DNA of 57,677 bases, counting the filler, from Sluysia triapertura (lineage: Eukaryota): NCBI GenBank assembly GCA_046118255.1. It is 4 parts of 4 records of this genome, joined end to end, with 100 filler letters (N's around TTAATTAATTAA, not from the genome) between each part and the next. Parts side by side here need not be neighbours in the genome. Positions count along the whole stretch, not along the records: positions 16,888 to 34,499 come from JBJNIA010186946.1; 3 more parts are not named here. One strand, written 5' to 3'. Position 1 is the stretch's first letter, and every line of letters starts with the position of its first letter. Made by a program: the position numbers and the translations under genes. Shown one piece after another: positions 16,788 through 46,236 of this stretch. Under the pieces are notes generated by a model that did not search any database, was not told the DNA's origin, and saw only the letters and a list, made by a program, of their open reading frames with translations.

Positions 16788-16887
16788 NNNNNNNNNNNNN
16801 NNNNNNNNNNNNNNNNNNNNNNNNNNNNNNNTTAATTAATTAANNNNNNNNNNNNNNNNNNNNNNNNNNNNNNNNNNNNNNNNNNNN
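16788..16887. other. Assembly gap: 100-nt N spacer with TTAATTAATTAA six-frame stop linker
   Basis: 44 N + TTAATTAATTAA + 44 N; the same construct occurs three times. Confidence 0.97.
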
Positions 16888-20554: not shown

Positions 20555-21807
20555 AAAACCTCCAATTCTTATCTTTCTTTGAAGCTGCAAATCTATGTGC
20601 TGGCCCTTCAGTGAGTAAGCCCAGTATCATAGGGAACTCACGTTTAGGATAAGATATTTAATATTATAAAAATTTCAACAAATATTCAAACATTAGAAGG
20701 TTTTCCAGTAGGTAAAGGTTTAATTGTAAAAGCGGCTAGAGTAGCACTGAAAGTATGAATGACCTTCCTCTCCACTCTCGTATACAAGGAATTTCATCTT
20801 TAATTATTAGAAACATAACAGAAAAATTTAGAATTCCAGTAGAAGCTGAAGAATTACCAACAACATTTGCTATTCTTTATGAAAAACCGATGGATATAAT
20901 GGATTTAACAAGTTTTCCATTGTTATATGAATCAGATATTGACAACGTTTACAAATGGCAACAAAATCTGACTTATACACATTTGCCGCATTAAGATATA
21001 GCTAATGAAAATAATTTAATTTTTGTTGCAATCAATCCGAGTTTGTTCCACACCATATCATAAAACCAAGAATGAGGATTAGAATTTTCTCACAATGGAA
21101 CACGGACTATGTGAAAATGATTTAAAGGATGGAAAATACATTGCAGAAATAAGAAAGTTTTGGTTAATTACTTTGTATGATAAGATACTTGTAGCCTGTC
21201 TACCTGAATTCATTATTAAGACATTTCAAATACCTTTTGGATGGCTACATGGCGTTATCAATTTAGCTTGCATAAATTTAGTATCGTATTCACATTTCAT
21301 CCATCAAATCGTGCTTGAAAAGTATTCAAACTTCTGTATACATTTCCACCAAACGATACTTTTACAAAATTAGCTCAGTATCAAACAAAAAGATCCATCA
21401 TTTTTGCTGCAAATAATTAATAGACAATTAGATGATCAGACTCCATCTACTTCTAAATCTTACTCTTCATTACATAACATAAATTCTACAGAAAAGCATA
21501 ACACATAAAACCATAACATTAACCATGCTCAATTATGAGGACTGTCCAAGAAACCTAAACTGGAGGACTCGAGAGCTGACGAACTATTTGGTTGGAATCT
21601 AATGAACAGCGAAGACTTTGCAGTTTCCAGTACATTTTAGACATTCTTTTGAATTCAGATGATACTAAATATGATGATATTGTTGACTTTAATAATATTT
21701 GATTCTTTTTAACTCCTCCTTTAGAAACAATTTTATTTTCTTTTTATGATTGTAGTTTCAATTAAAATTAGGGACTAATTTTCCCTAATAGGAAAATTAT
21801 ATGTAAT
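20555..21807 (+). mobile_element. LTR-retroelement-like internal fragment with disrupted orphan ORF
   Basis: 20555-20641 is similar to 47640-47721 and 31875-31916 (GCCCTT..GT.AGTAAGCCCA..ATCATA.GG.ACTCAC). ORF pieces 20755-20994 and 21095-21373. Ends in TAGGGACTAATTTTCCCTAATAGGAAAATTATA-TGTAAT, resembling a Gypsy pre-PPT hairpin/PPT/LTR junction. Confidence 0.45.
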
Positions 21808-22266: not shown

Positions 22267-23829
22267 TAATTTTCGCTTTGAAATCTTTCGTTTCTCGGCT
22301 GAATATATTTTATAAAATTTTCTTGGTTCAGTATTTATGACAATAACGAGATAATTTCAAAATATTTTAAATTTCGATTTTTCTAACTTAATATTTAAAC
22401 AAGTGCTAAATTATTAATATCGTCTCAAATAATGTAATGTTTTTGTACAATAATTAAATACTTCGTAATTTTCGATTTCAAATTTGTTACTATAATGTTA
22501 ATAAATAAATAAGATTTGTTCCCTTATAGACAGAATTGATAATTTCCAATCGACAAGTAAGGTGAAAACTATTCTTGATGAATTACTCCAGTGTGATATC
22601 AAATTATACAAAACAATGTCACGTTATCATTCATTCGCACTACACAAACAGTTGATTTATAATTTAATATGTTCTCTATTACTTAAAGTATAAAATGTTA
22701 CTACCAGAATGTTATAGTGAAATAAATATTTTGAGAAAATATAAATTCATTCCAATTAATGATCGGGTAGAAAGGTAGGCTACATCACTAATACAATTTA
22801 TAAGCTAAATTGATACTCAAGTGAATTTAATAAATTTTGTTGATGCACCTTGCATACGTGGTTTTCATTCAACGGCACTACCGGATTCCTCAAATCATCG
22901 TATTTTCCTTGTAAATTTGTAATGTTTTTGTTGTGATTGAAATTGCCAATAAAAAAAACAACAATAGATTACAAATGATGTCCATATGACTAGTAATATT
23001 ATAACGGGCGTACGAAAGTGATGAAATGAAATCATTTAAATGTGTTATCAGTAGAACTGTTATGACTAAGACGCGATTTGAAGATGCAGGTTGTCCGCAG
23101 CCATGATCGACCTCCAAGCACTGCCTCAATCAATATGTTTTCTTGCGAGTGTGACAAATTATTTTTACTGTTTCTTTAGTATTGCACTTCTGATCCGAAT
23201 TTTTATTTGTAAAAATTTCGCCTTTGTATTCTTCAGCTGGTTGCGAGGTAACATTAGTTAAAATATGCTCCTCTACGAATGCATCAGGTGGTTGATTTCT
23301 GGTTGAATTGGTGTTTGACATAAAGGACATATTAGTATTTTCAGATCGTTTGGATGTGAACGACCATATTGTTCATAAGAATAGTGGTTTTTATAAAACA
23401 TTTCCATGCAAAAAGTCTAACTGATAATGGTCTGGTTTTTGAGCAATGTGAACTTAAATTTAGAAATTCCATTTAAATTAAAATCCAGCAATTGTAATAA
23501 TCATTTTATATTATAGACATAGAAGCATAAAAATATAAAATAAAAAAAAATGTGAAATATAAACGAGAGGACGGTGCGTCATAATAATAATAAAATGACA
23601 ATGAACAATGATTTTAATATTTTGATTAAAAAATGTTAATAAAAGAAATTTTATGAGGCATTTGTGATTTAATAATGATAAATAGCGCAATGTCTTGAAT
23701 GATATGTGTAAGATTTGCCATGGTGTCGTTTTGTGTTGAGGTTTATGTATGTAGGTGTGGGTTGGGCCATCACACCATGTCAACCAAAAAAGAACACTAC
23801 TGATAATCAAACCCAATAAATATGACTTG

Positions 23830-24200
23830 GCATAAGACGTCGCTTGATATAGTGGACTGCATCTATAGAGTTTTTTCCAAGATCTTGGTCACAAATGGAA
23901 TCCTCATCAGTACACACCAAGCTGCTTTTCTCCAATCAGATGAATGCACCGAGCACAACTTCCTACTCTACTCACTTAGAGAAATAGTAGAGTCGATAAA
24001 TCATAGGAAATCGCGCAAAATCAAATTACACATTGTCTTCCTCGACTTGGCGAATGCATTTGGTTCAGTGTCGCACAATCTGATATGGCATCCACTCTCA
24101 AGTATAGAATTCCAACAGCAAACCCTGAACCAGTATCACTTACAAATTCATTGGCATTATAACCAAACCCGTACCGATCATGTATGGAGTGAAACTATTC
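23830..24200 (+). mobile_element. Non-LTR retrotransposon RT fragment (R2-group, NeSL/Utopia-like)
   Basis: IYRVFSKIL...HQAAFLQSDECTEHNFLL...LHIVFLDLANAFGSVSHNLIW matches QxGFxxxxGCxEHNFLL and LDLxNAFGSVPH. Confidence 0.92.
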
Positions 24201-24286
24201 TGGCAATAGACTATCTGTAGACTTTCTAATTTTTATTTTCTAGTTGTTGTTTTTACTAGTGTAGCTACCTATTTTTAAGCCTGTAT

Positions 24287-24635
24287 TGTTACTGCTGTGT
24301 TTTTTATACTTTTACTTTAAATTATCAAACTATAACCCAGTATTTAAACAAATTTTGAATCTCGATGTATTCTTTAAAATATCACAATTATACAATGAAA
24401 ATTTTTTATATTAATACAATTCTATTACATAAATGAAACTAATAAATTTCCTTTGACAAAATGCCTTCAACATATAACTTTACTATCAGCTTTAAAATTT
24501 TAAAAAAATTATTAATAAATCCCCATCAGGGATGACACAACTCAAATAAAATAAATGTTGATGCCCGTTTTAACTAAAATATAATGAATAAAAGCAGGTT
24601 ACTAACCTTTTTTCTTATATCTCCTTAAGTGTTTA
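24287..24635 (-). mobile_element. Partial LTR homologous to 28641-28950
   Basis: Starts TGTTAC. Colinear matches: tcgatgtattctttaaaatatcaca vs tcgatatattccttacaatatcaca; cagggatgacacaact vs cagggttgacacaact; ttactaacctt vs ttactaatcctt. Confidence 0.7.
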
Positions 24636-24859
24636 TTCACGTTTTATAAAATACATATTTATAATATGAAATGCACACATTTACACAGATTAACATATAA
24701 CACATGATATTTATAGATTAACATATATATTATAAATCAACTTGTTAAGACGAATGCTTCGCTTAATCATCTAAAATTATTTAAATAAGGAATTTTCAAA
24801 ATATAAATTATTTCATTTCACTGTTTCATTGAAATAGGAGTTGAAGTCGAAACAGTTTT

Positions 24860-25915
24860 GTTTAAAAAACTTTCTTTTAATTGTTTTCTTTTCATCTTGT
24901 TTTGCCAATTCTTCATACCTTTCCAAATATTTTGCTAATATTTCTACAAAATCAATTGATTCGTCATAAACAAGTTCAATAAATATTTACCAAAACGGAT
25001 TTACAACGTACTTCATGAATGATACCTGAGAAGCTGGTTTCTTTGTCAAGTAAAGCTGTAATTTCCACTTTTAGTTCTCTTTCTTTATCACTTTGAAGAA
25101 AAAGTTCTTGAGTAATACGATAAATCCATTTTTCATACAGAAATAATTCCCTGGTCGGGTTACTGATATCGGTATAATGGACAAGACTTTTTAATATCAA
25201 TATTTGATCTTCATAACTGTTTAAACTCAGTTCATCTGAACCAGCTAGCTAATAAAGACACGTGCTTTGCAAGATCTGTGGCTAATACCATATCTATAAT
25301 CAATTTTCGTATATGTATACGTTCAGTTTTAGCAAAGTTTTCTTAAATATTACAATCACTTTTACCCATAATTTTAAATCCAGTTGGTAAGTGGTGGTTT
25401 TCTAGAACACTAATATCGTTATATAATGTTGCTAATTCATGATTAATGTTCACCAGAAATTGATTGACACCTAAATGATTGACATCATGAATTATAAATG
25501 CCACAATAACAGCAAAAAGATCCAATTCCGTAAATCCACAACTGAGTGATTCAGATTCCATAAGTACATTGGCTGAAAGTGTGATATCACCAGAATGGTA
25601 CGGATTATTTCTGTAGGAAGACTCGATGGTTGTTAAAAAATTCATTAAACTCTTAGGATTTATTTCAGAATTTTAGAAGAAATTACGATACTTAAAAATT
25701 TCAAAAGATATGACAATCAAAGAATGATAATCTGATTTATCATGTAAATCGAATATATCAGTGACCCACTTCATCAAATCATTCTCATTATTTAATTTGA
25801 TTCCATACTGCTGCAAGTCTCCACTAATTTTTCGAATTTTTTGCTAGAATTTACATTGTCCGTAGTATCATATATATCATTTTTTCCTTCTTCTATTTTG
25901 TTTGCATGCATTTCT
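24860..25915 (-). pseudogene. PDE4: Intronless PDE4/dunce-type cyclic-nucleotide phosphodiesterase pseudogene
   Basis: NPYH, IHDVNHLG(V)NQFLVN..HELATLYNDISVLENHHL, RKLIIDMVLATDLAKH and LVHYTDISNPT...W..RITQELFLQSDKERE match the class I PDE4 catalytic domain. In-frame stops, frameshifts and short deletions; no introns over about 1 kb. Confidence 0.9.
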
Positions 25916-26274
25916 TAGCTAAATTCATAATTTCATAATCCGATAATTTTAGGAACATTTAGATTAGCTTTATTTTTCAAGAATTTTATTAAACAAATCA
26001 TTCATCAAAGTGCTTATGTTCGAGCCATGCATCGTAAGATCGCTAAAACAATTATTTAATCAATCATAACTTAAACGAAAATTTAATCTATCGTTTTTTT
26101 GAAATAACAATATTTTAAACGTTCTCTATCATTGCCATCGTTAGTACAAAAAGTACATTAGATTAATACTTATCAAAAAAATTTGAGAATAATATGTATA
26201 CTTAGTACATCTCACCAGAAAAAACTAAACTATTTAAAATTTACATTTAATGTTGGTCACCCAATTAGAATAAA

Positions 26275-26440
26275 ATAAATCATAAATTATAAATCATAAA
26301 CTATAAATCATAAATCGTAACCAATAAGTCAACGTTATAAACTAGAAATATATAAATCACAAATCGTAAATTATAGACTAAAGCATAAACCAAAAACGAA
26401 TAATTAAATTAAACACTATAAATCATAAATCATAAGTTAT
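26275..26440. repeat. Degenerate heptamer tandem array (ATAAATC)n
   Basis: Repeated ataaatc / ataaatt / ataaact / gtaaatt units. Confidence 0.8.
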
Positions 26441-26583
26441 AGATTATCAACCGTATAGTAATTCTTTAAGAAAAATGTCAAGTTAAATGTAAGACTCTAT
26501 TATATAATTAGAGTTATTGTTTACCCATATATCAAAATTTGCATAAATATTATCATAATTCTCAATAGATTTCGCAAACTCAT

Positions 26584-26811
26584 CTAACCACAGTAATTCC
26601 TTTTCGACTCTATTAAATGTAGAAAATTTTGTAGCAGGTATGGAGAACACGTACGCCTGATATCTTTTTCGAATCTATTTTTAGAACTATAATTATAAAA
26701 CAAAATAAACCCTAACATTATCAACACTCCTACTGCTGTAATTAACATCATTAACATGATTATATGTAAAATCATGCCTGTTGTAAATCGTCGTATTCGT
26801 TTTTGCGTCAT
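26584..26811 (-). CDS. Small putative single-pass membrane protein (75 aa)
   Basis: ATG start, basic N-terminus (KRIRR), long hydrophobic stretch (MILHIIMLMMLITAVGVLIMLGFILFY), polar tail. Confidence 0.35.
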   Translation of the reverse strand: MTQKRIRRFTTGMILHIIMLMMLITAVGVLIMLGFILFYNYSSKNRFEKDIRRTCSPYLLQNFLHLIESKRNYCG

Positions 26812-27382
26812 TCATAGTAGTTATATTTATTATTGAATTTATGAAAATTCTGATGTATAATAAATTTTATTTGACCATTTACTACAATATTTTGATGAAA
26901 GATAATTTTAAATCGTACAAAGATCTGCTAGATTCACGCATTTATGATTAATGATTAACATTAAGCATTATTTTAGCTATTAAATATTTTCTATTTTCAT
27001 AAAAGGAATCTTTTGTTAATTATCTTGATAGTCAAATATAATTTCAATAAACATGTATAAAAATATAATAATAAACAAATATTATGACAAGTATAATAAT
27101 AAACATATTGTCCTTGCTTTAATTTATAATAATATATAGTGTAAATACTACGCCAAATTATATATAAATGTGTTTCATTAAAATTGTTAATTTCTATAAA
27201 TGTAGATACTTGCAAAACAGGATACATTTCTTGGTTATTTTTTAATATTATATTTCCTACCTTTGTAAAAACTGTATAATTGATGTCGGGATTTAAATTA
27301 ATGCATGAAAATATGTTTTCATTTTCATTATATGTTACATGATGCATTATTTTGGCATATTATTTCTTCACTATTACTAATA

Positions 27383-28536
27383 TCATCTATTGGTATTATG
27401 TTTAAGTATTCCATTATATCTCATATTTTTATGTTCAGTATTAATTAAATCAGTAATAATTTTAATATCATCAATAATATCAATATCCATTTTATTATTA
27501 ATTACTTCTTTTTCAATTTCTTTTCCATTACTTTTAATTTCACCTTTATTGTTTTCCTTTGGAAATAGTGTAAAAATTTCACTCATACTTATTTTATCAT
27601 TCTGTGGTATTTCATCGCCTATTTTTTGCCTTTGCAACTGTAAAGTCAACTCTTTTATTACTTCTTTCATATTTTATTTTCTTCATTAAATTAATCAACT
27701 TGATTACACAATACTTGAGAAACTGGACTTTTACTACGCTTTCTTTTATTTCTATTTTCCAAATTACTCCTGCTTCTATAATTATTATCGTATGAATTTC
27801 GATACCAATAATTATATTTATTAATGTTCATTCATAAACCGTGATCTACTTTGTTCCATTTTTCTATTATACGTATGTCGCCTATGGTGCACTCTATCTA
27901 AAACTCCTTACACTATATTTCTATCGTTATCACAACGCTCATTATTCGAGAGATTACTGTATTTGAAATTATTTTGATTATTTGAATATTAATTTATTCG
28001 TATCAACATCGGTACGAATTATGGGCTCAGTATTCATCACATTGGACTGGTGTGCAATTCCCGTTATACTTTCTAGATTTCAGGCTTTTTGTACTAATTT
28101 GTCTAACATTAAAAGCTGTGTTCTTATCAGTTCCTTATACCCATCTATAATTTTTTTAGTAATTAATTCAATTTTTTGTTCATGTGTAAAACTTAGGTAT
28201 GCCTTATTTGCTAATTGTTTTAAGTCAAATAAAAATTGTGCAAGTGTTTCGAAAGTTTTTAAAATTAACGAATTTAGAATCTTTAGGCGACAATTGATTT
28301 CTAAAGTCACAAATTAAATTTTGATATAAATTTTTATTCTCTTCGGGAATGTTTAAATAAGCTTCTAAAGCTTTTCCTTTTAAATGGAGCGGAAAGAGCT
28401 TACACTGAACTTCTTCATCCCAACCTTACTTTTTCGTATAAAGTTACTATTTGTTAACAAAATTCGATAATGCATCTGGATTTCCATCAAATGATTCCAA
28501 TGGGAGTACAAAAGATGGTGCTGGCTCGATATTCAT
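27383..28536 (-). mobile_element. Disrupted Ty3/Gypsy-like gag
   Basis: MNIEPAPSFVLPLESFDGNPDAL...GWDEEVQCKLFPLHLKGKALEAY and ETLAQFLFDLKQLANKAY are typical retrotransposon capsid motifs. Stops and frameshifts; lies about 95 nt downstream of a PBS. Confidence 0.82.
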
Positions 28537-28628
28537 TCCTTTTTTCTTCGCGTTTTTGTCATATAATGTTAAATCTGAAATTATAAAATTATTCTTTGAT
28601 TAGAACAAATCTATATAATAAAATTATA

Positions 28629-28639
28629 CTGGTTCACCA
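28629..28639 (-). promoter_or_regulatory. Primer-binding site TGGTGAACCAG
   Basis: TGG start, located 1 nt from the inferred LTR end and just upstream of gag. Two transitions from TGGCGAGCCAG, the recalled complement of the tRNA-Arg(ACG) 3' end; the primer identity is inference. Confidence 0.6.
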
Positions 28640-28640
28640 A

Positions 28641-29389
28641 AGTTTATGTTGTGTCTTTTAATACTTTAATTTTCCCAAATTATTAGATTAAAACTCAATA
28701 AGTAAATAAATTAAAAATGTCGATATATTCCTTACAATATCACAAAATTACAACTAAAATATTTTTATAACAACAAATTATTCTTTATAACAATAAATTT
28801 ACAAATTATTCTTTATAATAAGATGACTTATTCTTCAATGACAAATATTAACCAGGGTTGACACAACTTATTTACATTTTCGCACCTGTATTAATACAAA
28901 ATTATAATCAATATAAAATAATTTACTAATCCTTCTTCCTCTAACTCTAAAAACTTATTTTAATCAATTACTAAAGAATAAGCCTCGATATTACCGTGAA
29001 CCAAAAATTTATCAAAGCAGCGTCCCTACAGCTAGAAAGTCTTCTTTCATTTTCTTAATTCGTATATCTATTGTATTCTACTGATTTTCTTGCAGAAATG
29101 TAACTGCTTATATAGTAGTTTTTATGGTAATTAAAATCAGAAATTGGACAATACGGAAATTAAAGCTCTCGATTTTCTTTTAGTAGGCAATAAGCCGAAT
29201 AAATGTCGCAGCAATTTCCGTATATGTTCAACTTTATTATCATTTTAATTATCTAAAGATAATGGGATAATATCATCTAATTAAAATTTAAAATCATTGT
29301 CACATTGCTTTTATAATAATAACATAATTTGTCAACTTAATTTAAGGAGTATTTTGTATTAATACGTTGTGCATTAACCGTACGTTACA
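28641..29389 (-). mobile_element. 5' LTR (about 750 bp) of the gag-bearing element
   Basis: Minus strand begins TGTAAC at 29389, has CTATATAAGCAG (TATA) at 29115-29104 and ends beside the PBS. Confidence 0.68.
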
Positions 29390-29859
29390 CCATATAAGCA
29401 TCAATTTAATATATACTTTACTAATACTTAGACATCGGAACATATTTAACTTTAATTTTAAATTACAAAAATTAATTAAAATAACTAATTTTTACGTTGA
29501 CGTGCTTTGAAATACTTCATCATTAAAATTTTATTAAAACTCAATATTATATACTAAATCTAATATCATCATTCATGAGAAAACACTTTTACTGTGCTAT
29601 CAAATTACACAAATTTTTATTAAATTAATTAACATATGTACTTTAATATTTTAACAAATAAAACCTTGTAAAGGGTTATATCTTCATATTTCTCATTATT
29701 TTCTTTTAATTTAAGTATTTGATATACTTATTTTACCATTGCAGTTTATCATAATACCTCATCTTAATTCTTTAATAATGTTGAACTTATACTCTTATCT
29801 TGAGTCCTGATCCTTACAACTACCTTTATCCGTCACTAATCCCAACAATTCATTGTTCA

Positions 29860-29977
29860 AAATAAACAGTGTTCATATTATAAAACTCAACTTTCCATGA
29901 AAACCATATGGTTTTCAATAACTTTTGACTTAAATGTTCATATTAGGCAGGGTTCATATTGAACAGGGTTGACTGTA
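29860..29977. mobile_element. pogo/Tigger-like terminal fragment
   Basis: GGGTTGACTG|TA end (CAGTCAACCC-type TIR) with three subterminal GTTCATATT repeats. No partner end seen. Confidence 0.45.
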
Positions 29978-30360
29978 TTTAGTTATTTGACAATGGATCT
30001 TTTTAGTAGAAATATTATTATTGTAATAATAGTATTGAATCATTTTTTTAATGTGATAATACATATCATACTTATTTTTATTGTCCGGTGGTGGTAAGAA
30101 AATTTAAATTTACTGTTTAAAAAGAGTGGATATCCTTGGTTTGGAGGATCAAATATATTTTTTAATGGTTAACGCCATCACTTATTATAAACTTTTAATA
30201 ACGATGATGAATTGCTTGAATTTTGAGATTTTAAAAGAAATTTATCATAGTTAATGGAAATTTAATTTTTCTTATAATTAAAGTACAAATTCGAATTATT
30301 TATACCTTATATCATTTGTTTATTTTTGTACTTTATATAATTTAGTGTTTGTTTTAATTT

Positions 30361-30715
30361 GTGCAGCGAGGCACAATTTCTGAAAATTTTAAAAATGCGA
30401 CGTGTAAAAAGAAGTATGAGAATTCAAAAATATTTGGAAAATCGTATTGCGAAGACAGAAATAGTGCAAAGTAGACGATTTAATGGTTGTGTTGTTTAAA
30501 GCCTTCAAATTTTCTGTTCTCAAAGTAGCTGGCTCAGAAAATCTGCAGAATATTTATTACATATATTAAGAAATGTAGAAGCCGATGCTGAGTTTAAAAG
30601 TTTAGAGGCTGATCAAATACTAATTGGACATATGTGTGTTCGTGAAACTCACATGATCACTGTTAGAAAGAATTTCATATTTCAGTACATTTAATGAAGT
30701 CTATGTATCCATGAA
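30361..30715 (+). pseudogene. RPL17: Processed pseudogene of 60S ribosomal protein L17 (uL22)
   Basis: RGTISENFKN / IQKYLENRIAKTEIVQSRRFNGCV* / WLRKSAEYLLHILRNVEADAEFKSLEADQILIGHMCV aligns to RGSNLRVHFKN...KYLKDV...VPFRRYNGGV...[37 protein letters not shown]. Frameshift, stop, no introns; absent from the ORF track. Confidence 0.9.
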
Positions 30716-33700
30716 GTAAATGAATCCATAATTTTTAAATTCAAAAGTAATGAAATATTTAATCAATAGTGCTTATGGGTTTTTTTGTATTTTATAAGAC
30801 TTTCTCGATGTAACTATAAACTTTTTAAATTTCTGATGATTCCACTTTAATGTTTTAATGCTCTTTCTGAAATACAGTCTTATGCGTTAATCATATTTTT
30901 ATTTAATTTTATTATATGCGAAATTTAAATAGTAACATTAACAGCAGAAACAAATACATTCTAAATTATCATTATGTCAAATGTTATGTTCTAATTTTAT
31001 CTAATTTAAAAATACAAGTATGTATGTCTAATTCTATCTAAAAATAAGTCTAAAAAACAATAAATATTAATTGAAAAATTTTCTAATTCTAAAAATACAT
31101 ACAAACTCTAAAATTTATTTAAAGAAAAATCAATAAATATTAATGTTAATAAATTTATGTTTTAATACTCTTAAATAAAATATAAGTAAAATGTTAATAC
31201 TTTTAAATAATAAAATGCTTGTGTATTATTAATAAATTTATAAAATAATGTATAAAATAATACAAAATAATAAATTTGTTTAAAAGAACCTAGTTGTTTA
31301 AAAACCTATATAAAGCTCTGTTATATTTTAAAAAACAATTGATTTTTTATCTGGAGTTCGATCGATTTTGATCGCTTTCTTGAATTCATAGTTTTTATAG
31401 CTCACATATAGGATATAAATTAATTTACTCGTTAGTTTTTTTTACAGTAAGCTTGCCTATTTTTTAATGACGAAAATTCAGACTGAAATTCCTTTATCGC
31501 CCCTATTAAAATTCAATTATTCACATTCATGATTATAATATAATCAGATAAATTCATTATTAATAATTATTTGTTAATTTTTATTTGTTGTTTGCCGTAC
31601 TTAACATATTGTAATATAAAATTCCATATTTTTACTTGAAATTATAGATAAGGTACGCCATTTTTACACGGACATAAAATATACTAAAAATAATAAAAGA
31701 AAGTCGATTTAAGGCACAGTTTTTTCTGTACGGTAGTAAACTCTGACGTAAAATTCTCATCTATTAAATTTAAATTAATTATTTTTATTTTAAAAGAATA
31801 ATATTGACTTTACAATACAAAAATAGTTGATTACTAATCTCAATTTACTATTTCTTTTGTTTGCTACCTACAACCTAGCCCTTAAGTAAGTAACTCTAAG
31901 ATTGTACGGGACTCACGTGTATAGCATTTTTTAAGACAAACACTGTCAGTTCTTGAAATTATAATCAGGTGCTTAAGACACGACCATGGCCAGAATAATG
32001 GAAATTATATTCTACAATAAATATTATTAAAAGTATGAAAACCTTTGCTACACATATCCAACAAATATTACAAATATTAAAAATACAATAAATATTATAA
32101 TAACATAAAAAGATCATAAATGAAAAATGATATTTTACGGGTTCTAATAAACTTTAATTTAAAAATTTTCCCCTCACTAGCTCGGAGTAAATAAAGATTA
32201 TTTACAAGAATTTAGATATATTTTAATATTTTAATCTGTAAGATTGAAACTCCTTAACAAATATAACTTAGTGAACGTAAAAGATTGAGATCCAATCGAA
32301 ATCCGAAATACCTTACAATATAATATCTCAAATTAATATGATTAATTGACTGAATCTACTTTGCTGATCGAATAAATCTCGGGATATCCCCACAAATCGA
32401 TGGATAAGATTTGCGTCTTTGAAATTAATAGTAACAATAAACCAATATCAATTTATTTTACTTAAATATAATCTCAAATAATTTCAATATTTACTAGATC
32501 TTTGTATAACTTATCACAAATTTTCTTATTTTAATAATGATATTTACTCAACCCAAAAATTACGTTTTTAATTCAAATTAATAACAATAAGTCAGTACTA
32601 TAATAATTACAAAAATAAATACAAGTCATTATTATAAGTTTCTCTTTTAACAATAAACAAATTTCAGAATTAACAATAATATTTATAACAATATTAAGAC
32701 CACAATAATCTATTATAAGAAACCAGAGGTGACGCAACAAACAAAAAATTAAAATTCCACTATATAAAGAAACTGAAATCAATAATAATAATAATTATAT
32801 CTTGTCAAACTTATATCTATTCTAACTTAATAACCGAAAAGCTGTAAAATAATTTGGGCAGAGAGTCAATTTACCGCTAGCTTACTAAAAATTTACCATA
32901 ATCATGGATCTTCCTTTCAATACGATTGTGTCTTAAAATTTTTAAGTATTTGCTTTTATATCACTCTTATTTTAACACAAATCATCAAAACCTCTTTAAA
33001 AGATTAAACCGACTAAAACGACTTTGACATTTACATGTCAAGCGAAACATAAAGATTCGATTAACAATCAATTGTTTTTCTTCTACTCTGCTCGATCTGT
33101 TTTTTCATGAATCACTTCTTACATTAAAATAAAAATAAATATTATTATTGACATACTTAAAAATGATGAATTTAACTTTAGTTTTTGCATTTTAATTAAT
33201 TCCTCACACTCAATTTTGTAATGGAAAATGTTTAAGGCTCTCATTCCCAAACAAACAATTTCACAAATATTTCAACCTCAGTTTCAGATTCTCCTTTTTC
33301 ATAACAATCATTTCATATTCAATTCATTATCTTTTCATCATTCTAAATATGAAAATTGTAACACATTTTAATTAAACAATAATTAAAATTCGACTTTGCT
33401 CAATATGGGGGCTTTCCTTATATGAACTCGGTCAAACCTTATATTCATCAGAAGATCTCTTTCATACGCGTACATGCACAATTACAATTTTAAAATAGCA
33501 TTCCTCATTCAAAAGTTATTCACACAAACGTAATTTTCTTAATTAAGTTAATTAAGATTTTAATTATTTAATTAATTATTTATTTATTTTATTCTAAGTT
33601 TAAAGGTTTTATTATGGTTATAAAGTTGTTAACTATTATATTCCTAACTGACATCGTCTATACCTAATTATGCCTTTGGGCATCGCAGTAAATACAGAAA

Positions 33701-34499: not shown

Positions 34500-34599
34500 N
34501 NNNNNNNNNNNNNNNNNNNNNNNNNNNNNNNNNNNNNNNNNNNTTAATTAATTAANNNNNNNNNNNNNNNNNNNNNNNNNNNNNNNNNNNNNNNNNNNN
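34500..34599. other. Assembly gap with TTAATTAATTAA linker
   Basis: Same 100-nt construct as 16788-16887. Confidence 0.97.
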
Positions 34600-35039: not shown

Positions 35040-36360
35040 AGAGAATCATCCTTAAAAATATTAAAAGACGACTCCAATAGCGCGCCAACTTAACTTTTAA
35101 GAGAATGTTATTTTCGGGATCCCATGAATCAAGTGCGCCAGCAACAAATGTATCAAAGGAAACCTGACATTTAAGTTCAGATTGGAGTTTCTACGGAATA
35201 TCAGAATACTTATTAATGTTAAGAGTCTCGCTGCCCTACATTTGTTACAGTCATACATAGGTGAATTGACATCGATCAGAAAGATTGGGTTGAATTAATG
35301 CCTTGCACCTAAATGTCGGGTCTTCGGTAGTTATCAGTAAGAGGGGTTTGCGTATCTTTCTTAACGGAAAAGTCCTTTTGTCCAAGTTAACCACAGAGGC
35401 ATTCATGTATCTTGTTAGTCTCACTGTACGACCTGTAACAGTTTGAGTTCAGAGACATAAGGGCAGTCGTTTCACGTCCAAACTCGCACCAGCAACATGT
35501 GACAAGAAGATGAAGCCTGTTATTTTGTGGGCAGAAATAATACTCCGTATTTGATTGGCATAGGTTCAGTAGTAAGACTGTTACGAAGTCTTACTATCTT
35601 CGTAAATATCCCTAAGAAGATTGAGAGTATGCTGGTTCAGGCCCATAGGGATAGGGTGTGCCAAATAAGTTGATGGGAAACAGAACCGAAATCATTTGTT
35701 AGGTCGAGGAAAATTACATGAAGTTCAATTTTCTTCGATTTCCTACGATTAAGGGATGCAATTATTTCTTGAAGGGAGTATAACAAAAAGTTATGTTCGG
35801 TGAAGCGCGGTTTGGTGAGTATTGATAAGGTTGCCGGAATGTCCCCGGGAAAGAAGGAGATCGTTAGGAATTTTAGTTAAAACCTGGTATGTCGTATCAA
35901 GGACTGCAATGGGTCGAAACGAGGAACTTATTAGGCTTGATGATAAGTAGAGGAGACACAAAAATTGTCTCGACGGATCGACGTTCTTAATTTGTTCGAA
36001 CGTGATTTTATTGGATCCTGGAGCGGAATTCTTACAGGACTTCAAGGTAGCCATAATCTCAACTTCTGTAATAGGATCGTAAGAATAGGTAACCAAGAAG
36101 TGTGTAGTGTACCGAACTGTGAAGTGTCAGTGGTGGGCACTATGCCACAACTGTAATAGTCACAGATCTCGGTCGCAAAAGGGTTAAGTGGAAAGGAGGC
36201 TGTGCCAGTGATAAGTTAGAACGCCTTGTTCTATTCTGCTGAATTTCCTTATTACCACTTTGTTACTTTTAAATCGAGGAAAGATGTTGGGAAACTTGGG
36301 AGTAAACAATTTATGAATCAAGTCACAAAATTCGGAAAATATTTCGTCGACAGAACCTTC
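35040..36360 (-). mobile_element. Internally deleted NeSL/Utopia-like RLE non-LTR retrotransposon
   Basis: PITEVEI..TLKSCKNSAPG.NKIT and FRPIAVLDTTYQVLTKI (RT domains 0-2); CCWCEFGRET (CCHC knuckle remnant); RRPDI*...LIDVNSP and VAGALDSWDPENN (restriction-like endonuclease; GALGSWDPxN motif). Confidence 0.88.
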
Positions 36361-39830: not shown

Positions 39831-41030
39831 AGGTGGACGACAGATATATAACAACAGTAGTTTTTTTTATGCATCTCATTTAATAATTGTTGAAAAATTA
39901 TTTTAAAAATAATATAATTTATTAATGATTATACACTTTAATTTGATTATGACAAAAATATTTAATTATCACATAAACGACATTTAATTAAAAAAGTAAT
40001 TTTAGGGTATGACAAAAATATAACAACACTTAGTTTACTAATTAATTAACTTTAAAATTAAAATTTTTAATAGCCAATAAAGTCACCATTCTTCTTTAAG
40101 ACTTCAATAATTCTTTTAGGCATTGAGCTAACTATACTTTTCATTTCCTCAAGGCTGATTTCTTCCCAATCAGAAAGAATGGCTGCTTTCAAATCCTTTA
40201 CATTGTCAACTTGGCGTCAATTCCGGTAAACCTTCTGAACGAGTAAACCCAGAGGTTCTCAATGGGGTTTAAGTCAGGGCTACAAGATGGCCAACTCAAA
40301 ATCCGAAATTGGTTATCTTCACACCATGTAGTTCCATTCCAACCAAATGCTGCCAAAACCATCACCGAACCACCTCCGAATCCACGTTTTTGAAGTACTC
40401 CGGACTCTTCCTCAGTCATGCTAGTAAAACTGGCATCCGCAGAGATTAAATTTTTTCTCGTCACTGAATATAATTTGATGCCATTTTAAAATCCATGATA
40501 TGTATAATTGTGCCCAGATGACGCGTGCCGACTTGTGTGCTGCTGTGAGTTCTGGTTTGGGCTTCCTCTTCTCATATCTTAAGTGTTGGAAATTGCATAC
40601 AACCCTTTGGACAGTTTTATTGAACAAGGAAGCTGGTGGACCAATTTAATCTGTTTTGGAGACATCACGAAGAATGCTCCTTTTGTCTCTCGATGTCACC
40701 TTTGGTTTCCACCCTCTTCTTATTTTATTTGTCAAAATTTTTTAATTAAATATATAATAACTAACAAAAAATTATTTAAATAGAATAGATTAAATAAAAT
40801 TAATTACCTTTGATTGACTAAAATTGACTAATTAATTAATGTATTAAATTTTAGAATGGTGTTGTTACAATTTGTCACACGTAAAAATCACAGTAATTAG
40901 GTATTTATTTTAATAATATTTTAATTGTTTTCATAAATGCTTCTAATAATAACATCAGAAATAAATATCATTAATAATTAATTAAAATAAAATAAAAAAA
41001 CTACCGTTGTTATATATCTGTCATCCACCT
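39831..41030 (-). mobile_element. Tc1/Tc3-like transposon, both TIRs present, transposase internally deleted
   Basis: TA|AGGTGGACGACAGATATATAACAACAGTAGTTTTTT ... AAAAAACTACCGTTGTTATATATCTGTCATCCACCT|TA. Motifs IIFSDEKKFNL, GGGSVMV.AAF and WPSCSPDLNPIENLW; the QQDNA (second Asp) segment is missing. Confidence 0.96.
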
Positions 41031-41224: not shown

Positions 41225-41568
41225 CTAGCATTGTTCTGCCACACTGGTAGGAGATATATTCAAAATATTTGATGTATTATACTGAGGATTTTGTTGTAAA
41301 TATCGCTTGTTTGGAGGTAATGGTGATTTGCGTTCTGTAGCACATTCTTGTTTGCTAAAGTTTTCGGCGACAGCGGCTAAAAGATCAAGACCGGCAATTG
41401 GTGGCACAGAGGTATCTGGTTCGGCATTGGTACTAGTAGTAGTACTTGTACTAGTATTAATAGCAGGAGTAGTTGTAGTAATGGTAATAGTACTGGTGGG
41501 GCTGCTGGCTTTGTTGGGGGTAGTAGTAATTGATGGAGATATTGTTGAAATAGCCGGTAGTATATTTG
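41225..41568 (-). CDS. cic: Capicua-like gene, terminal exon (Thr/Ser-rich; GLDLLAAVAE motif)
   Basis: AG acceptor (plus CT 41569-41570) after an ATT tract; phase 1 matches the preceding donor; open to TAG at 41225. Confidence 0.72.
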
Positions 41569-41573
41569 CTTTA

Positions 41574-41626
<53 letters not shown>

Positions 41627-41654
41627 TTAACTTGTTATTTACCTTGGAACTTTA

Positions 41655-41883
41655 CCCTTGCGGAGGTCGCGGTCGAAAAATTACAAAAATTACAATCAAA
41701 TGTCACACATCTGCACATAACACGTGTCACACTAAACTAACCGCAAAACCAGAGTAGCTTCTCATTAGTAACATACGCATGCCTAGCTAGATACGACCTT
41801 CAAGCAATACGCCGAATATAAACAAGAGTATTTAAAAAAGAAATTTGCTTGTATCTATTAGATCAGCCGCATCCTCCGCAGGG
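41655..41883. mobile_element. piggyBac-type MITE in cic intron
   Basis: ttta|CCCTTGCGGAGGTCGCGG ... CCGCATCCTCCGCAGGG|TTAA; about 17-bp imperfect TIR. Confidence 0.8.
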
Positions 41884-44614
41884 TTAATATACGATAATAA
41901 AAAATATTGGTTTTAATAGTTTAAAAGTTAGTGTGCTTTCAAACGACTATTTCAGATTGATTGGTGTTGCCAAATAAATCTGACTAAAAAATTTATAATG
42001 TTAGTATTTTATTTTCGTTAATATTTACATAAAAAATATTCTCTTTTTGTGAAAATGTGCCATTGTAATTGAAATTAATATTTAATCCAATAATAAGTTT
42101 CATAATGAAAAATTTTACAAGATGTATTTAGTATGATATATATGACGAATATAAGCTCAAGGTATCTGCATGATACAAAAAACAATTTTCAAATATTTCT
42201 TCAAACAACCAAATGCGCGGTGCAAGTAAATGTGGTGTGCACCGCACAAACAACTAATGCTTTTCACTTTCTGTACTAGGTATTCACATAATGAGAGATC
42301 TATTGATGTAGTTGTTACTTTCGGCCTTGCTGGGGAACTTGAATTTTAGATACTCAAACATTTCACTCAATTATAATATAAAGTGAAAGAATATTATTAA
42401 AGCATTAAAAGATGTTGGAATCTATGGTCACCTGATATTTTATGCATTCTTTGATTTGATAAAGAGTCACATCATTTTACAGACACATACATGTTTGTCA
42501 TGCGAAATATAATCCCAGTTTTATTCGTGACGAAATATCCTCAAAAAATTATTGATATAGATTGAAAACTAGGTATAATAGAGAGAAAGTGAACAGGACG
42601 ATCTTGAATGTGAATTAGTAAGAAATTATGTAAAAACAAATTTTCTCCGATGAAAAGATTTATCAACTTCAATGATAATAAAATAGCTGATGATTCCTTC
42701 GAAGATTACACAATTAAACCTGTATCATCTTTTAAATAAATAGTTTTAAAAATTTGGTTTTTATAAAAACATTAATGTTAACGAACAAACGTTGAATATT
42801 TTGGACATACAAATAAAACCGTTTTTGGAAAACAATCAAATTTGGATTTAAAATTAAGTTGAAGTTTCTTCATCTGGTTTTTGTTGGCATTAAGACATTG
42901 TGAAAAAACAATATTAAAAGATTGTTACTGCAAGCAACTGAGTTCATTTAAAATACCAGTAATTATGTCTTTCAGAAAGTTATTGGGACAATATAACACT
43001 AATTAAAAAGTTCTATCTTGAAGTGTATATGAACAGTGTGTATAGGTGAATGAAATATATGTGAATTAATTAAGTATGAAGATAATGCTATTAGAGGAAA
43101 CAATCATCAATATCCAAAACTTTAATCCAATATTGTAAGAATCTACATCGAGATATGAAAGTGGTATTGATCATACTTTACAAACCAACACGTCTAACAG
43201 CTTTCTTATGTTCAAAATCGTGCACTTGACCAGCCAGGACAATTGTTTTCAGCTTGACGGTCAATCACTCCACGAGTTATGATTTTACCGACATTTGGTA
43301 ATTGAAATAGAAATTCCAAAGTGATACCGGGAATAATGTGCATAATGTGCATATGACCAACCAATGGCATATAACGATTACTGATTGGTACTAAATTGTG
43401 TCTAGGTTTCTGTACTTTAAGTCCACAATTTCAAAATTGTACTACTAAATTTGGTGAATTTATCTTCAAAAACATTTTAAGTTCATTTTTGTCACTATTT
43501 AAACTTGACATTTCAAAATCTACTGAAATTTAATTAACAATGTAATTAATCATGTTATTTATATTATTACATATGTCGTTCGTAGAAATTGTGACTTCGA
43601 AATAAATGAGTAGATTTAATAATTATGATATTAACCGATATTTATTTCATATTACTGAATCAATTAATATTAATATTGAATATTTTAATATTAGATTGCT
43701 CAGTACGAAATGGATACCATTTTTATTTACGATTGCTGTTTATAACATACCAGAGAAGCTATGTAGCCAAATAATGATAATACCTAGCAAAACACGATAC
43801 GTGAAAAATGAATTCTGAAAATTTTGAGATGAGACTAGAGAAATCAATTTTTAGAATGAGACGAAATGTAAATTAACCTTTACTATTTATTTGAACCTGT
43901 CATAGTAAAAAAATTTATAAACGTTACAAAATATGTTTCAATTTTTTAAAATTTTGTAAATTTTTACCTTTTATGAAATTATTTAAATGTAGTTCCGATA
44001 TGAATGATTAATATTGAGTTTTAATGAGGCATTTTTGAAACATGGCATCACACATTTTCTAGTTACAATTACTATGGAAATATTTAACTATTTATTATGT
44101 ATTTTAGTGACTTAATTAGAACCATAGACAACCAAATTAATTTCAACACTATGTTGCATGTGAAATGCGGTTCTCTCATAATGAAAAGCTGAGACTATCT
44201 CTAATTCTGACATTTTTGACATTAAATTCATGCTGTATCTATTTATGCATTTTCTTTATGTGGATGGAAAGAGTTTATTACAAAACTTGAAATTCGAATC
44301 TTCTCGAATAGACGAATATCCTGGTTATTAATTTTGAACCACAATTTCAGATTGTACCTGAATCCAGTTTCCAAATCAAATCTAATCTGTCTAATTCTTT
44401 GAAGTATTAAAATAATCATTTTATGTTAAACAGACACACAGAAATTATATCTTTCATTATTAGTATACAGTAAGTAATAATTTATTTGATAAATGGTTCA
44501 TTCGCATACATTTATATATTTGAAATACAATTGTAATTGTAAAAAAATTAATTTATGGAGATGTTAAATAATATAAATATCGCAATAGTTGAATTTAATA
44601 GAAATATATTATAC

Positions 44615-44810
44615 TTGTATTTGTAGAGGTACTGATGAGGACAGTATTCGAGGTAATAGTATCGGAAACACAAGATAATTTTGAAAGGCTGCTTTCGTGT
44701 AAATTGCTACGATTATTTATGTTGCTGCTAGTAGAATTATTGGCACTACTGGTAGATTTTATGGATGACCACTTCCAATTTGGATGATGACTGAAATGTG
44801 CGTCTTTAAG
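44615..44810 (-). CDS. cic: Capicua-like gene, exon completing the HMG box
   Basis: AG acceptor (plus 44811-44812), phase 0, encodes LKDAHFSHHPNWKWSS... (CIC: VKEAHFKAHPDWKWC); 196 nt; phase-1 GT donor (plus 44613-44614). Confidence 0.9.
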
Positions 44811-45316
44811 CTAAATTAACATTATTAATAATTTTATACTAATTACTATTATAAATAGATAATGTATAAAAATTTTGTGATTGTGCAATAATCTTATTAA
44901 TTTTAGGAAAATCTACTTCTGTTCAATAATTGATAATCATCAAAGAAAATTATGTTTTTGGTAGTTTGCTTTATTTGTTTTGCCAGGATTAATTTTATAA
45001 AAATATAATCTAAAATTATAAAACATCTTAATAATTTTAAAAATAAAATTATTTGCAAAAAATGTCTTAGTAATTTTAAAAAAGTCTGGCTTGATATTCT
45101 TTAATGGATATGTTGTTTCGCCGTCTTTCTATAAGCTTAACATTTTCTGCGAGTCAATACTTTTTAAATTATTTTTTAAAACACAACTACAATTTTTACA
45201 TACAATTCAGCTTTTTCCATTGTGAAAGATTTTTCAGAAATTGACAAAGAAGTTCAGCATTATTTATTATTCTCAATTTACTTGGAAAAAGAAATTATAT
45301 ATAAAGTCATAGGAAC

Positions 45317-45798
45317 CTGTTTAGCTAATTTCTGATAATCAGCTTTCTCTGCATTACTCATCTGATACCACCACTCTCCAAGTATCTGACTAACTGCTCG
45401 GTTATCCTTGTTGGGATTTTGACGATGAACCTCAGATCGGTGACGCATTGAAAAAATCATAAATGCATTCATTGGTCTTCGAATTCGTGTAGATTTAGGA
45501 CATGATTTCACCTTGTGGTTGAATGATACTGACGATGAGGTAGAAATAAGTGCGGTTGAAGTGGTTGGATTAGTTAATGTTGTAACTACTACCGCAGTCG
45601 TTTTATTAGGTGTTACTGTTATTACTGAAGATTCCGATTCTTTTATGATCTTATATTGATCCGAAATTGAATCCTTTGATTCAATTGATTCGGGTTTGGT
45701 TCCTTTCCCATCCTCTACTTCTTCAGTTGCACGAGATAATTTAGGCGGTTCTAAAGAATCTAAATCATCTTTGACTTCACATTCTTCTACATAAATAC
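45317..45798 (-). CDS. cic: Capicua-like gene, HMG-box exon
   Basis: [40 protein letters not shown] matches [43 protein letters not shown] better than BBX or SOX. ttcAG acceptor at 45800-45799, phase-0 donor after ...AKQ. Upstream exon(s) not located. Confidence 0.93.
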
Positions 45799-46059
45799 CT
45801 GAAAGAAAGTATTTTTTTACAAATTATTTTCAGTTTAAAAATTATGATTTGCATATTACTACAAAATAGCAACATATAAATGTATTTTTTATTGATTTAA
45901 AATAATCCATAATTATTTTTCACGTTAATCCTTATACAAGCATCCAAAATAATTCTTCGTGCACAAATATGTATGATAATGTAATGGTAACAATATATCA
46001 ACTGATTGAAGTGAAACTTCATAATTACACATTTCTGCAACTTTTTACTCAGTTATATC

Positions 46060-46136: not shown

Positions 46137-46236
46137 NNNNNNNNNNNNNNNNNNNNNNNNNNNNNNNNNNNNNNNNNNNNTTAATTAATTAANNNNNNNN
46201 NNNNNNNNNNNNNNNNNNNNNNNNNNNNNNNNNNNN
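46137..46236. other. Assembly gap with TTAATTAATTAA linker
   Basis: Same 100-nt construct as 16788-16887. Confidence 0.97.

Follow-up and report, generated by a model that had tools for sequence, protein, structure and literature searches.

In the genome of the flatworm Sluysia triapertura, within the 57,677-nucleotide stretch of DNA that we analyzed (hereafter, the window), a long terminal repeat (LTR), a primer-site motif, a decayed gag and the catalytic domain of a PDE4 phosphodiesterase were all verified on the minus strand. The unit between 24287 and 29389 is neither one intact nor one amplified element. We consider it probable that the locus is composite and dead, the product of more than one event; with comparable confidence, we see in it a single dead retrocopy of PDE4 that abuts the remnant of an LTR from another subfamily, next to which lies a high-copy gag element in truncated form. 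Altogether, it looks like a one-off relic rather than a mobile element spreading PDE4. Against the composite reading stands the order of the parts (LTR, gag, cargo and LTR end), which, together with their shared orientation, is the expectation from one capture.

A broken PDE4 copy at single-locus depth

The PDE4 copy lies on the minus strand at 24813..25861, with homology over 25861-24885 and the last frame stopping at 24813. Along the homologous part it is collinear with all four reference PDE4s and carries no intron-sized insertion, in line with the first-pass annotation of an intronless PDE4, whose reading frame nevertheless turns out to be broken. Three stops (25673, 25343 and 24987) interrupt it, the frame shifts near 25246 and again near 25032, and short segments are deleted; the first histidine motif has a 5-residue deletion, the metal-binding motifs are incomplete and the frame is not open. 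The copy probably encodes no working enzyme now and did not spread.

The detectable part is the catalytic domain only, matched by Pfam as PDEase_I (PF00233, E=4.3e-23). Family choice favors PDE4C (E=1.9e-42) over PDE1 (2.1e-30) and PDE8 (3.8e-25), the best 50 protein matches are PDE4-type or unnamed, and the nearest protein is 47% identical among the best 120 of 240 matches (lengths 355-2000 aa). By similarity, the copy is assigned to PDE4 (class I cAMP phosphodiesterase), closer than to other PDE families. In a PDE tree it falls outside the PDE1 clade on a branch of 1.33, long branches meeting in such a way that its placement among PDEs is not fixed; flatworm PDE4 branches are also long (0.51-0.85). 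We infer from its sequence that the copy is a retrocopy.

Upstream, a unique spacer (25862..26274, minus strand), with neither UCR2 nor LTR homology detected, may be the 5′ part of PDE4 or its flank. Across 25780-26500, a UCR2 profile built on 32 PDE4 sequences gives a negative score that does not exceed those of 468 control frames, and this test ruled out a UCR2 seen by eye near 26030-26080; the missing UCR1/UCR2 would reflect either truncation or divergence. Downstream, unique 3′ UTR-like sequence (24632..24812, minus strand) ends in the AATAAA reported previously, which a motif search places at 24637-24632, and LTR homology is absent upstream of 24623.

Read depth separates this part from its neighbors. 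Records from a single run, possibly the assembly's own source, were placed at a threshold of 80% likeness, and the summed contig depth obtained in this way is not equal to copy number; 11,921 of the 17,022 placed records are at least 90% alike, 41 of the 17,022 fit two places, and 8 of 17,679 pieces were shown individually. In this run, the summed depth is 31,629-443,380 in all 11 bins of the LTR, gag and orphan ORF part and 31-55 in all five PDE4 bins (31-37 in two of them), while the unique contigs over PDE4 have a depth of 15-18 and no differences. PDE4 is thus at single-locus level, an outcome named beforehand as one that would speak against transduction, with LTR-gag about 570-fold or more higher. 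The same contrast (31-55 vs 31,629-443,380) contradicts the proposal that PDE4 in place of pol is the structure of a family.

The high-copy element and its left boundary

As delimited by depth, joints and motifs, the 5′ LTR spans about 1.2 kb (28641..29847, minus strand) and belongs to a Gypsy-like family of high copy number. These motifs are TGTTGGG at its start (29847), TATATAA at 29114, TCAGT at 29084 and ATTAAA at 28964, and the depth is 89,322-443,380 in four of four bins (28621-29824). The LTR first annotated at 29389-28641 is real, but its left end is probably 29847 rather than 29389. Indeed, joints in contigs of other copies cross the 29389 region (29268>29399, 29268>29418, 28977>29451 and 29390>29393), and alignments and joints of the high-copy repeat terminate at 29847 and 29849; the stretch 29390-29847 may nonetheless be a separate repeat. 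Since the high-copy repeat continues past 29389 to about 29847, the earlier comparison of flanks (gtat vs ccat) probably used an incorrect left end. The absence of a matching target-site duplication also holds at the corrected boundary: none was found at two left by five right candidate ends, and age could have erased one.

The left flank (29848..29975, minus strand) is one end of a miniature DNA transposon, TA followed by CAGTCAACCC, which is cut at the LTR start and is putatively Tc1/mariner-like. It is multi-copy (depth 5,264 in bin 29825-30125), and a search of the window that tolerated as many as 6 mismatches in 24 found no second terminal repeat.

One nucleotide past the LTR end lies the primer-binding-site-like TGGTGAACCAG (28629..28639, minus strand); its TGG motif at 28639, directly behind the LTR, makes it a candidate site by position, as first annotated. 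Further on, gag (27383..28536, minus strand) is decayed. The gag previously drawn over 28536-27383 is backed by capsid homology in 28536-28056, where the frame is broken by 4 stops in 165 codons and one frameshift; the 3′ part is unassigned. The window piece alone matches PF03732 at E=0.048, a search retrieved 28 proteins at E<=0.001 (best E=5e-11), and 14 of the 20 gag-matching proteins scanned bear Retrotrans_gag (PF03732) or Ty3_capsid (PF19259), whereas the tail ORF 27673-27386 has no match in Pfam or Atlas. It is from gag alone that the element would be called Gypsy-like. No pol domain or motif was found in this copy by Pfam, over 10 read-through stretches, or by motif search, in agreement with the original annotation. 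The longest gag piece aligned shows 47 differences in 290, a likeness of 84%. Pattern matches to the gag piece (161) and to query P0124 (181) in metagenome contigs, and to query P0132 in genome contigs (51), included no confirmed relative; the high-copy family may already sit in planarian repeat libraries (supplements) or in Repbase.

Behind gag, the two orphan ORFs of the first-pass annotation are present at 27359-26997 and 26811-26584, both on the minus strand and inside the high-copy part. The first (26997..27359, depth about 63,000) gives a weak lead to fibronectin type III (Atlas 0.84-0.87, below the lead level of 0.9; recognition 1738), has no match in Pfam or among PDB sequences, and gave 0 of 21 candidates; a motif for this lead, chosen post hoc, occurs once in six frames. 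A fold search with a modelled 83-aa piece returned nothing above background and listed no fibronectin row, but it is not a test against fibronectin III because the modelled part would cover one half each of two neighboring domains. The second (26584..26811, depth 31,629) contains a hydrophobic stretch at 26754-26698, whose mean hydropathy of 2.76 is attained by 12 of the 118 window ORFs of at least 60 aa. To judge by sequence, the cargo of the high-copy family is possibly an orphan membrane ORF, with a weak fibronectin-III-like lead. The heptamer array is likewise present (26275..26443, minus strand; depth 2,567 in bin 26213-26513) and is where the high-copy element stops in this copy; the unique contig starts within it, at 26364.

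The downstream LTR piece and the relative ages

The downstream LTR homology formerly described is confirmed by two significant blocks, but it is U5-like only and no full LTR is present. In the first block, 28765-28642 aligns with 24407-24288 (92/120 identical, 77%; score 59.6 vs a shuffle maximum of 27.2), and in the second, 28947-28853 aligns with 24623-24527 (about 72% identical; score 44.0, reached by 0 of 500 shuffles). The piece is a U5-like remnant of a related LTR (24287..24623, minus strand) that ends in GTAACA and begins 14 nt behind the AATAAA. Its depth is 1,366 in bin 24407-24707 and 5,663 in bin 24106-24406, the latter partly contributed by a LINE in the same bin. Identities of 72-77% and the unequal depth recruited (89,322 for the first LTR vs 1,366-5,663) indicate that the two LTR segments act like members of distinct subfamilies or like copies of unequal age, the other outcome that had been named as adverse to transduction.

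Neither U3, R nor a purine tract was found before the 3′ piece in the LTR alignments and the junction search, and the sole purine run nearby (24616-24606) falls within the LTR homology. This counts against capture, because both U3 and purine tract are expected to remain after a single ordinary cycle of reverse transcription. An A6 at 24613, 18 nt past the AATAAA, aligns with the LTR purine run, which renders it ambiguous as a candidate poly(A), and the AATAAA itself (24637) aligns loosely, outside the significant block, with the LTR ATTAAA (28964). Between the two junction zones there are only AT-rich repeats of 8-11 nt. In a 600-nt LTR alignment, the portion upstream of 24623 was AT-rich noise; a 3′ LTR start at GGTGAGA then TGTAC near 26215-26207 was also ruled out, as this place has no LTR homology and unique depth. 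The right flank (23807..24217, plus strand) is a LINE reverse-transcriptase fragment, matched to PF00078 at E=3.2e-05, which does not reach the curated cut-off, and a related piece lies near 35660-35800.

In line with the first-pass proposal to compare LTR divergence with that of PDE4, the LTR pieces were aligned and PDE4 decay was modelled. The corrected LTR-LTR distance is 0.28-0.36, half of which, per piece, is 0.14-0.18. Under a decay model that is our own assumption (AT-biased, kappa 3), the changes in PDE4 (8 of its 53 conserved columns altered, 3 stops over 318 codons) fit a decay of 0.05-0.07 per site, about half or less of that value. The probability of 8 or fewer changes among 53 columns is 0.023 at a decay of 0.14 and 0.002 at 0.18, and that of 3 or fewer stops is 0.08 and 0.03, respectively. 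The gag stops are compatible with either age, including about 0.14; since they fit this value and the gag piece is 84% alike, an age corresponding to half of the LTR-LTR distance is conceivable for the first LTR.

Possible origins and known systems

The original reading as LTR-mediated transduction is favored by a sense, spliced-looking PDE4 between homologous LTR sequences and by the absence of pol, and is opposed by the single-locus PDE4 and the dissimilar LTR pieces. Its accompanying caveat, that of adjacent or independent insertions, is the better reading given the depth contrast and the LTR divergence. Nevertheless, because PDE4 is sense-oriented between LTR sequences and pol is absent, the LTR machinery may be involved. 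In the composite reading, there is one intronless PDE4 copy, whose 3′ end passes, 14 nt past the AATAAA, into the U5 part of an LTR of an older or rarer subfamily. Tentatively, the likeliest maker of this junction would be the first cDNA of an LTR particle (U5 and R end) jumping onto a co-packaged PDE4 mRNA: the cDNA would skip its own RNA and land on the 3′ end of that mRNA, a mechanism suggested by junction geometry and retroviral biology. We give a modest chance to the alternative that a LINE-made retrocopy inserted into an old LTR, at its A-rich R/U5 border. The 3′-truncated high-copy element (LTR, primer site, gag, orphan ORFs and heptamers) would have come to lie upstream by later insertion, recombination or deletion. 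First-strand jumps onto cellular mRNA are known from yeast and retrovirus experiments; if the PDE4-U5 junction is one of them, it would be a natural animal example. Among the literature matches listed, none concerned such a jump, and the top 25 of 298 and top 15 of 66 included no PDE4-bearing LTR element.

One old canonical capture by double template switch as in Tan et al. (2016), with PDE4 mRNA taking the place of the element's internal region on its 3′ side, appears unlikely, and equally so the deletion that it also needs, in which the 3′ LTR would later have lost U3 and the greater part of R together with the purine tract before the two LTRs drifted apart. Order and orientation fit it, as does the gag stop density at 0.14, and partial intronless cargo between element sequence is the product described in PMC5131818; but PDE4 has decayed only about half as far as the LTR distance demands, the two LTR pieces differ greatly in depth, the deletion must stop no more than about 15 nt from the poly(A) signal and no target-site duplication was found. 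It is improbable that PDE4 was an old intronless host paralogue (retrogene), long functional, which died in place between unrelated LTR neighbors. The branch of 1.33, along which 45 of the 53 conserved columns were retained, suggests long constraint before decay, a depth of 31-37 in two of the PDE4 bins can hardly accommodate a close parent beyond two alleles, and unrelated repeats fill the window; yet the upstream regulatory domain is undetected, LTR homology starts directly behind the poly(A) signal and branches of 0.51-0.85 are seen for other flatworm PDE4s.

Very improbable is an older flatworm LTR lineage, the source of the U5 remnant, that once bore a working PDE4 as selected cargo and left this locus as its last relic; the long branch that retains 45/53 columns, the restriction to the catalytic domain and a junction flush with an LTR end allow it, single-locus depth and the lack of an intact copy oppose it, and, if true, the LTR-borne PDE4 would have lowered cAMP in host cells. 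Scarcely credible is a multi-copy non-autonomous LTR family bearing PDE4 in the place of pol, suggested by the architecture of this one locus only, for the depth over PDE4 at 80% likeness is that of a single locus, siblings of a copy decayed by 0.05-0.07 would be expected 86-90% alike and hence caught, and an intact 3′ LTR is absent.

The composite locus can be compared with the animal LTR-mediated retrocopies described by Tan et al. (2016; PMC5131818), which keep both LTRs and have internal ORFs replaced. It shares with that description a partial, intronless, sense host coding sequence between LTR-element sequences and no target-site duplication around the cargo; it differs in that the 3′ side is U5 only and 23-28% diverged, the cargo retains a poly(A) signal and no second copy is seen. 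One discontinuous LTR element, with both its LTRs, on the two sides of the cargo, as these authors require, is not found here, where later deletion is possible, nor is the secondary amplification that is optional in their scheme (single-locus depth); two full near-identical LTRs and a purine tract, expected of a Gypsy element, are also lacking at this locus. In the account of yeast Ty1 retrosequences (PMC7175516), LTR reverse transcriptase copies cellular RNA, as it would here. Ends without clean integration would be explained because such products can enter breaks or rearrangements; that account does not describe the junction structure, and the first-jump model is ours. As read, the locus is a minor example, at most extending known LTR-linked retroposition to flatworms; a first-strand jump at the PDE4-U5 junction, or an LTR lineage that kept PDE4 as cargo, would give it greater significance.

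The high-copy family has its own parallels. Plant TR-GAG elements (PMC9784723) also combine LTR and gag without pol, here read from one copy, but they are defined by two matching LTRs, whereas this copy has one LTR and extra ORFs. Planarian Burro/GYPSM1 (PMC6431247; 25-30 kb, full pol, with BIR, BCL2, MATH and ankyrin domains) and bdelloid ORF3 LTR elements (PMC5408684) are described as invertebrate Gypsy elements with host-like domains or small transmembrane ORFs; the words phosphodiesterase and fibronectin are absent from the main texts of both articles. The host of Burro/GYPSM1 is also a flatworm, and the likeness drawn here is by description only. The better lead from this locus is a very abundant flatworm LTR family with gag followed by an orphan membrane-type ORF and, in this copy, no pol.

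Composition of the locus and copy number of its parts

In this window of AT-rich animal DNA, the minus strand of the locus (24287..29847) carries, in order, an LTR (28641..29847), a TGG primer-site motif (28639), gag, two orphan ORFs, a heptamer array (26275-26443), a unique spacer, a PDE4 copy, a 3′ UTR-like stretch with an AATAAA (24637) and an LTR-related piece with the terminus GTAACA (24287), beyond which a LINE fragment lies on the opposite (+) strand. The first-pass annotation had assembled these parts into one Gypsy-like unit with a host PDE4 in place of pol; they are all present, although the PDE4 copy is dead and the first LTR seems to start further out, at 29847 (TGTTGGG), rather than at 29389. 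The absence of pol was borne out, domain and motif searches giving no pol domain or motif between gag and PDE4. The Pfam match of gag is weak (E=0.048), and 28 proteins matched it at E<=0.001 in a search among 1.84 billion, and of the 20 matches scanned 14 contain a domain of the retrotransposon gag or Ty3 capsid type; it is decayed, with 4 stops per 165 codons. The phosphodiesterase copy is PDE4-type, collinear with all four references and devoid of intron-sized insertions; its frame is broken by 3 stops and 2 frameshifts, one of its short deletions hits the first histidine motif, and a profile test did not detect UCR2.

Depth was taken from one public sequencing run (X1), possibly the very data behind the assembly and thus no independent support; records were matched at 80% likeness, 17,022 of them falling within 22300-31300, and their summed depth is not a copy number. 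It amounts to 31,629-443,380 in 11/11 LTR-gag-ORF bins (26514 to 29824) and to 31-55 in 5/5 PDE4 bins (24708 to 26212), lower than in the flank bins at 30126-30727 (75 and 95). Unique contigs of depth 15-18 cover the PDE4 bins with zero differences, and what depth these bins have beyond that may come either from the other allele or from a parent gene; 41 records match two places. The U5 remnant (24287..24623) reaches 1,366 and 5,663, the latter including the LINE in the same bin, versus 89,322 for the equivalent part of the first LTR. The LTR-gag-ORF bins exceed the PDE4 bins by about 570-fold or more, which sets an amplified family apart from a locus that occurs once, in one or two alleles. 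The several intronless copies that would have supported transduction are thus not indicated, the PDE4 bins being at single-locus level, and an amplified PDE4-bearing family is nearly excluded.

Since the orphan ORFs sit in the high-copy part, they, and not PDE4, are what this very high-copy LTR family has after gag, without pol, in its copy at 26514-29847 (-). The first ORF resembled fibronectin type III clusters in Atlas (0.84-0.87), a lead only, and holds a fibronectin-like motif run, found post hoc and once in six frames; no support for fibronectin type III came from Pfam, from PDB sequences or from fold searches with a modelled 83-aa piece. The second has a hydrophobic stretch equalled by 12 of 118 ORFs of 60 aa or more in the window. 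The family is possibly non-autonomous with membrane-protein cargo, and a cargo of fibronectin III plus a membrane ORF is less likely than not. Host-like or membrane cargo in such a family is plausible, since ORFs of this sort are known from planarian Burro elements (PMC6431247) and bdelloid LTR elements (PMC5408684). Among the matches listed in a literature search, with supplements and Repbase outside its scope, no LTR element with PDE4 or fibronectin as its cargo was found.

Ends and ages of the two LTR pieces

Two significant blocks are common to both LTR pieces, one identical at 92/120 positions and the other at about 72%. The first LTR has, on the minus strand, a TATA box at 29114, a TCAGT of initiator type at 29084 and an ATTAAA at 28964, by which the shared part would correspond to the R/U5 border and U5; the 3′ piece is therefore read as U5-like. 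The proposed homology of a second LTR segment thus holds for these blocks, but nothing aligns upstream of 24623 (16-21 bits, the null level; anchored extension 0). The piece starts 14 nt past AATAAA, with no U3 or purine tract ahead of it. The LTR U5 also has a weak match (65%) at 31029-31260, possibly AT-rich noise.

As for the outer end of the first LTR, depth in X1 exceeds 240,000 as far as 29824, beyond 29389, and four joints connect across 29389 while two terminate at 29847/29849. The locus's highest depth, about 1.46 million at 29467, lies in 29390-29847 (-), which is either LTR U3 common to many solo LTRs or a separate, commoner repeat. As cautioned earlier, no target-site duplication was found at any candidate end pair tried. 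A single clean integration would leave one split flank; here, the left flank (29848-29975, -) holds a single end of a miniature element (MITE-like, Tc1/mariner-like in kind and present in many copies), which is cut by the LTR and has its other end missing from the window, and the right flank is a LINE. Past the heptamer array, 26251-26207 (-) contains GGGTGACCAACA, ending in an inverted match of the LTR's TGTTGG; it also shows a T-run and then GGTGAGA-TGTAC, resembling the start of an LTR behind a purine tract in decay, a candidate rejected on its unique depth and lack of LTR homology.

The LTR pieces are quite diverged, as first noted: their corrected distance of 0.28-0.36, or 0.14-0.18 per copy if both started identical, is above the PDE4 decay. 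The PDE4 copy departs from 8 of the 53 columns that are kept in 95% of a set of 32 PDE4s, and its stops number 3 in 318 codons. Under an AT-biased neutral model this fits 0.05-0.07; values of 0.14-0.18 are unlikely, with P=0.023-0.002 on the columns and P=0.08-0.03 on the stops. That 11,921 of the 17,022 matched records are at least 90% alike, in a recovery whose seeding favours close matches, suggests for the first element an age below the one that the LTR distance implies; against this, gag stop density also fits 0.14, and the longest matched gag piece is 84% alike.

Origin of the locus

During LTR replication, the 5′ LTR acquires its U3 from the RNA's 3′ end, so that a normal 5′ LTR and a 3′ end with U5 alone cannot both come from a single round; a second event is thus required, which was probably the joining of two pieces. 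The LTR-mediated transduction of PDE4 first proposed is partly supported. The poly(A) signal and U5 are in flush contact. Such a contact is what a first-strand jump onto the end of a cellular mRNA would leave. Tan et al. (PMC5131818) report retrocopies replacing internal ORFs with both LTRs retained; for Ty1, the confirmed part is the production of retrosequences which enter at breaks (PMC7175516).

Less probably, about one chance in five by our judgement, a single old capture was followed by a later deletion as the second event; its age would be that of the LTR pieces, above the PDE4 decay. Somewhat less credible still is an old intronless PDE4 paralogue with repeats as mere neighbours, which the long branch of the copy (1.33) favours. 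A LINE-made copy landing at an A-rich LTR site is possible. The locus is a real relic of an ordinary kind.

Other features of the window

A ribosomal protein L17/L22-like fragment (30500-30691, +; PF00237, E=0.0012), 650 nt from the LTR, is perhaps another retrocopy. The LINE reverse-transcriptase fragments at 23807-24217 (+) and 35640-36126 (-) are related (66% amino-acid identity over 59 residues), and decayed mariner and Tc1 transposase pieces occur at 4591-5092 (+) and 40201-40645 (-). A capicua-like gene (41228-45823, -) has its HMG box (45284-45520; PF00505) split by an intron, the best named matches of the box, four of five, being trematode capicua at 72-74% and the fifth an unnamed protein at 87%. 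By these matches the host is a flatworm, and base composition suggests a free-living triclad. A HELZ2 OB-fold exon (3717-3953, +) scores above the cut-off for PF25049. Long-ORF runs at 7556-9013 and 11038-12462 (-), of up to 288 aa and with no Pfam matches, have the look of an unknown gene in decay or of cargo from an element. A 34-nt repeat (family D18) has four loose copies, at 20608, 31883, 47688 and 56521. The gaps at 16788-16887, 34500-34599 and 46137-46236 each consist of 44 N, 12 bases and 44 N, and all lie outside the PDE4-LTR locus.
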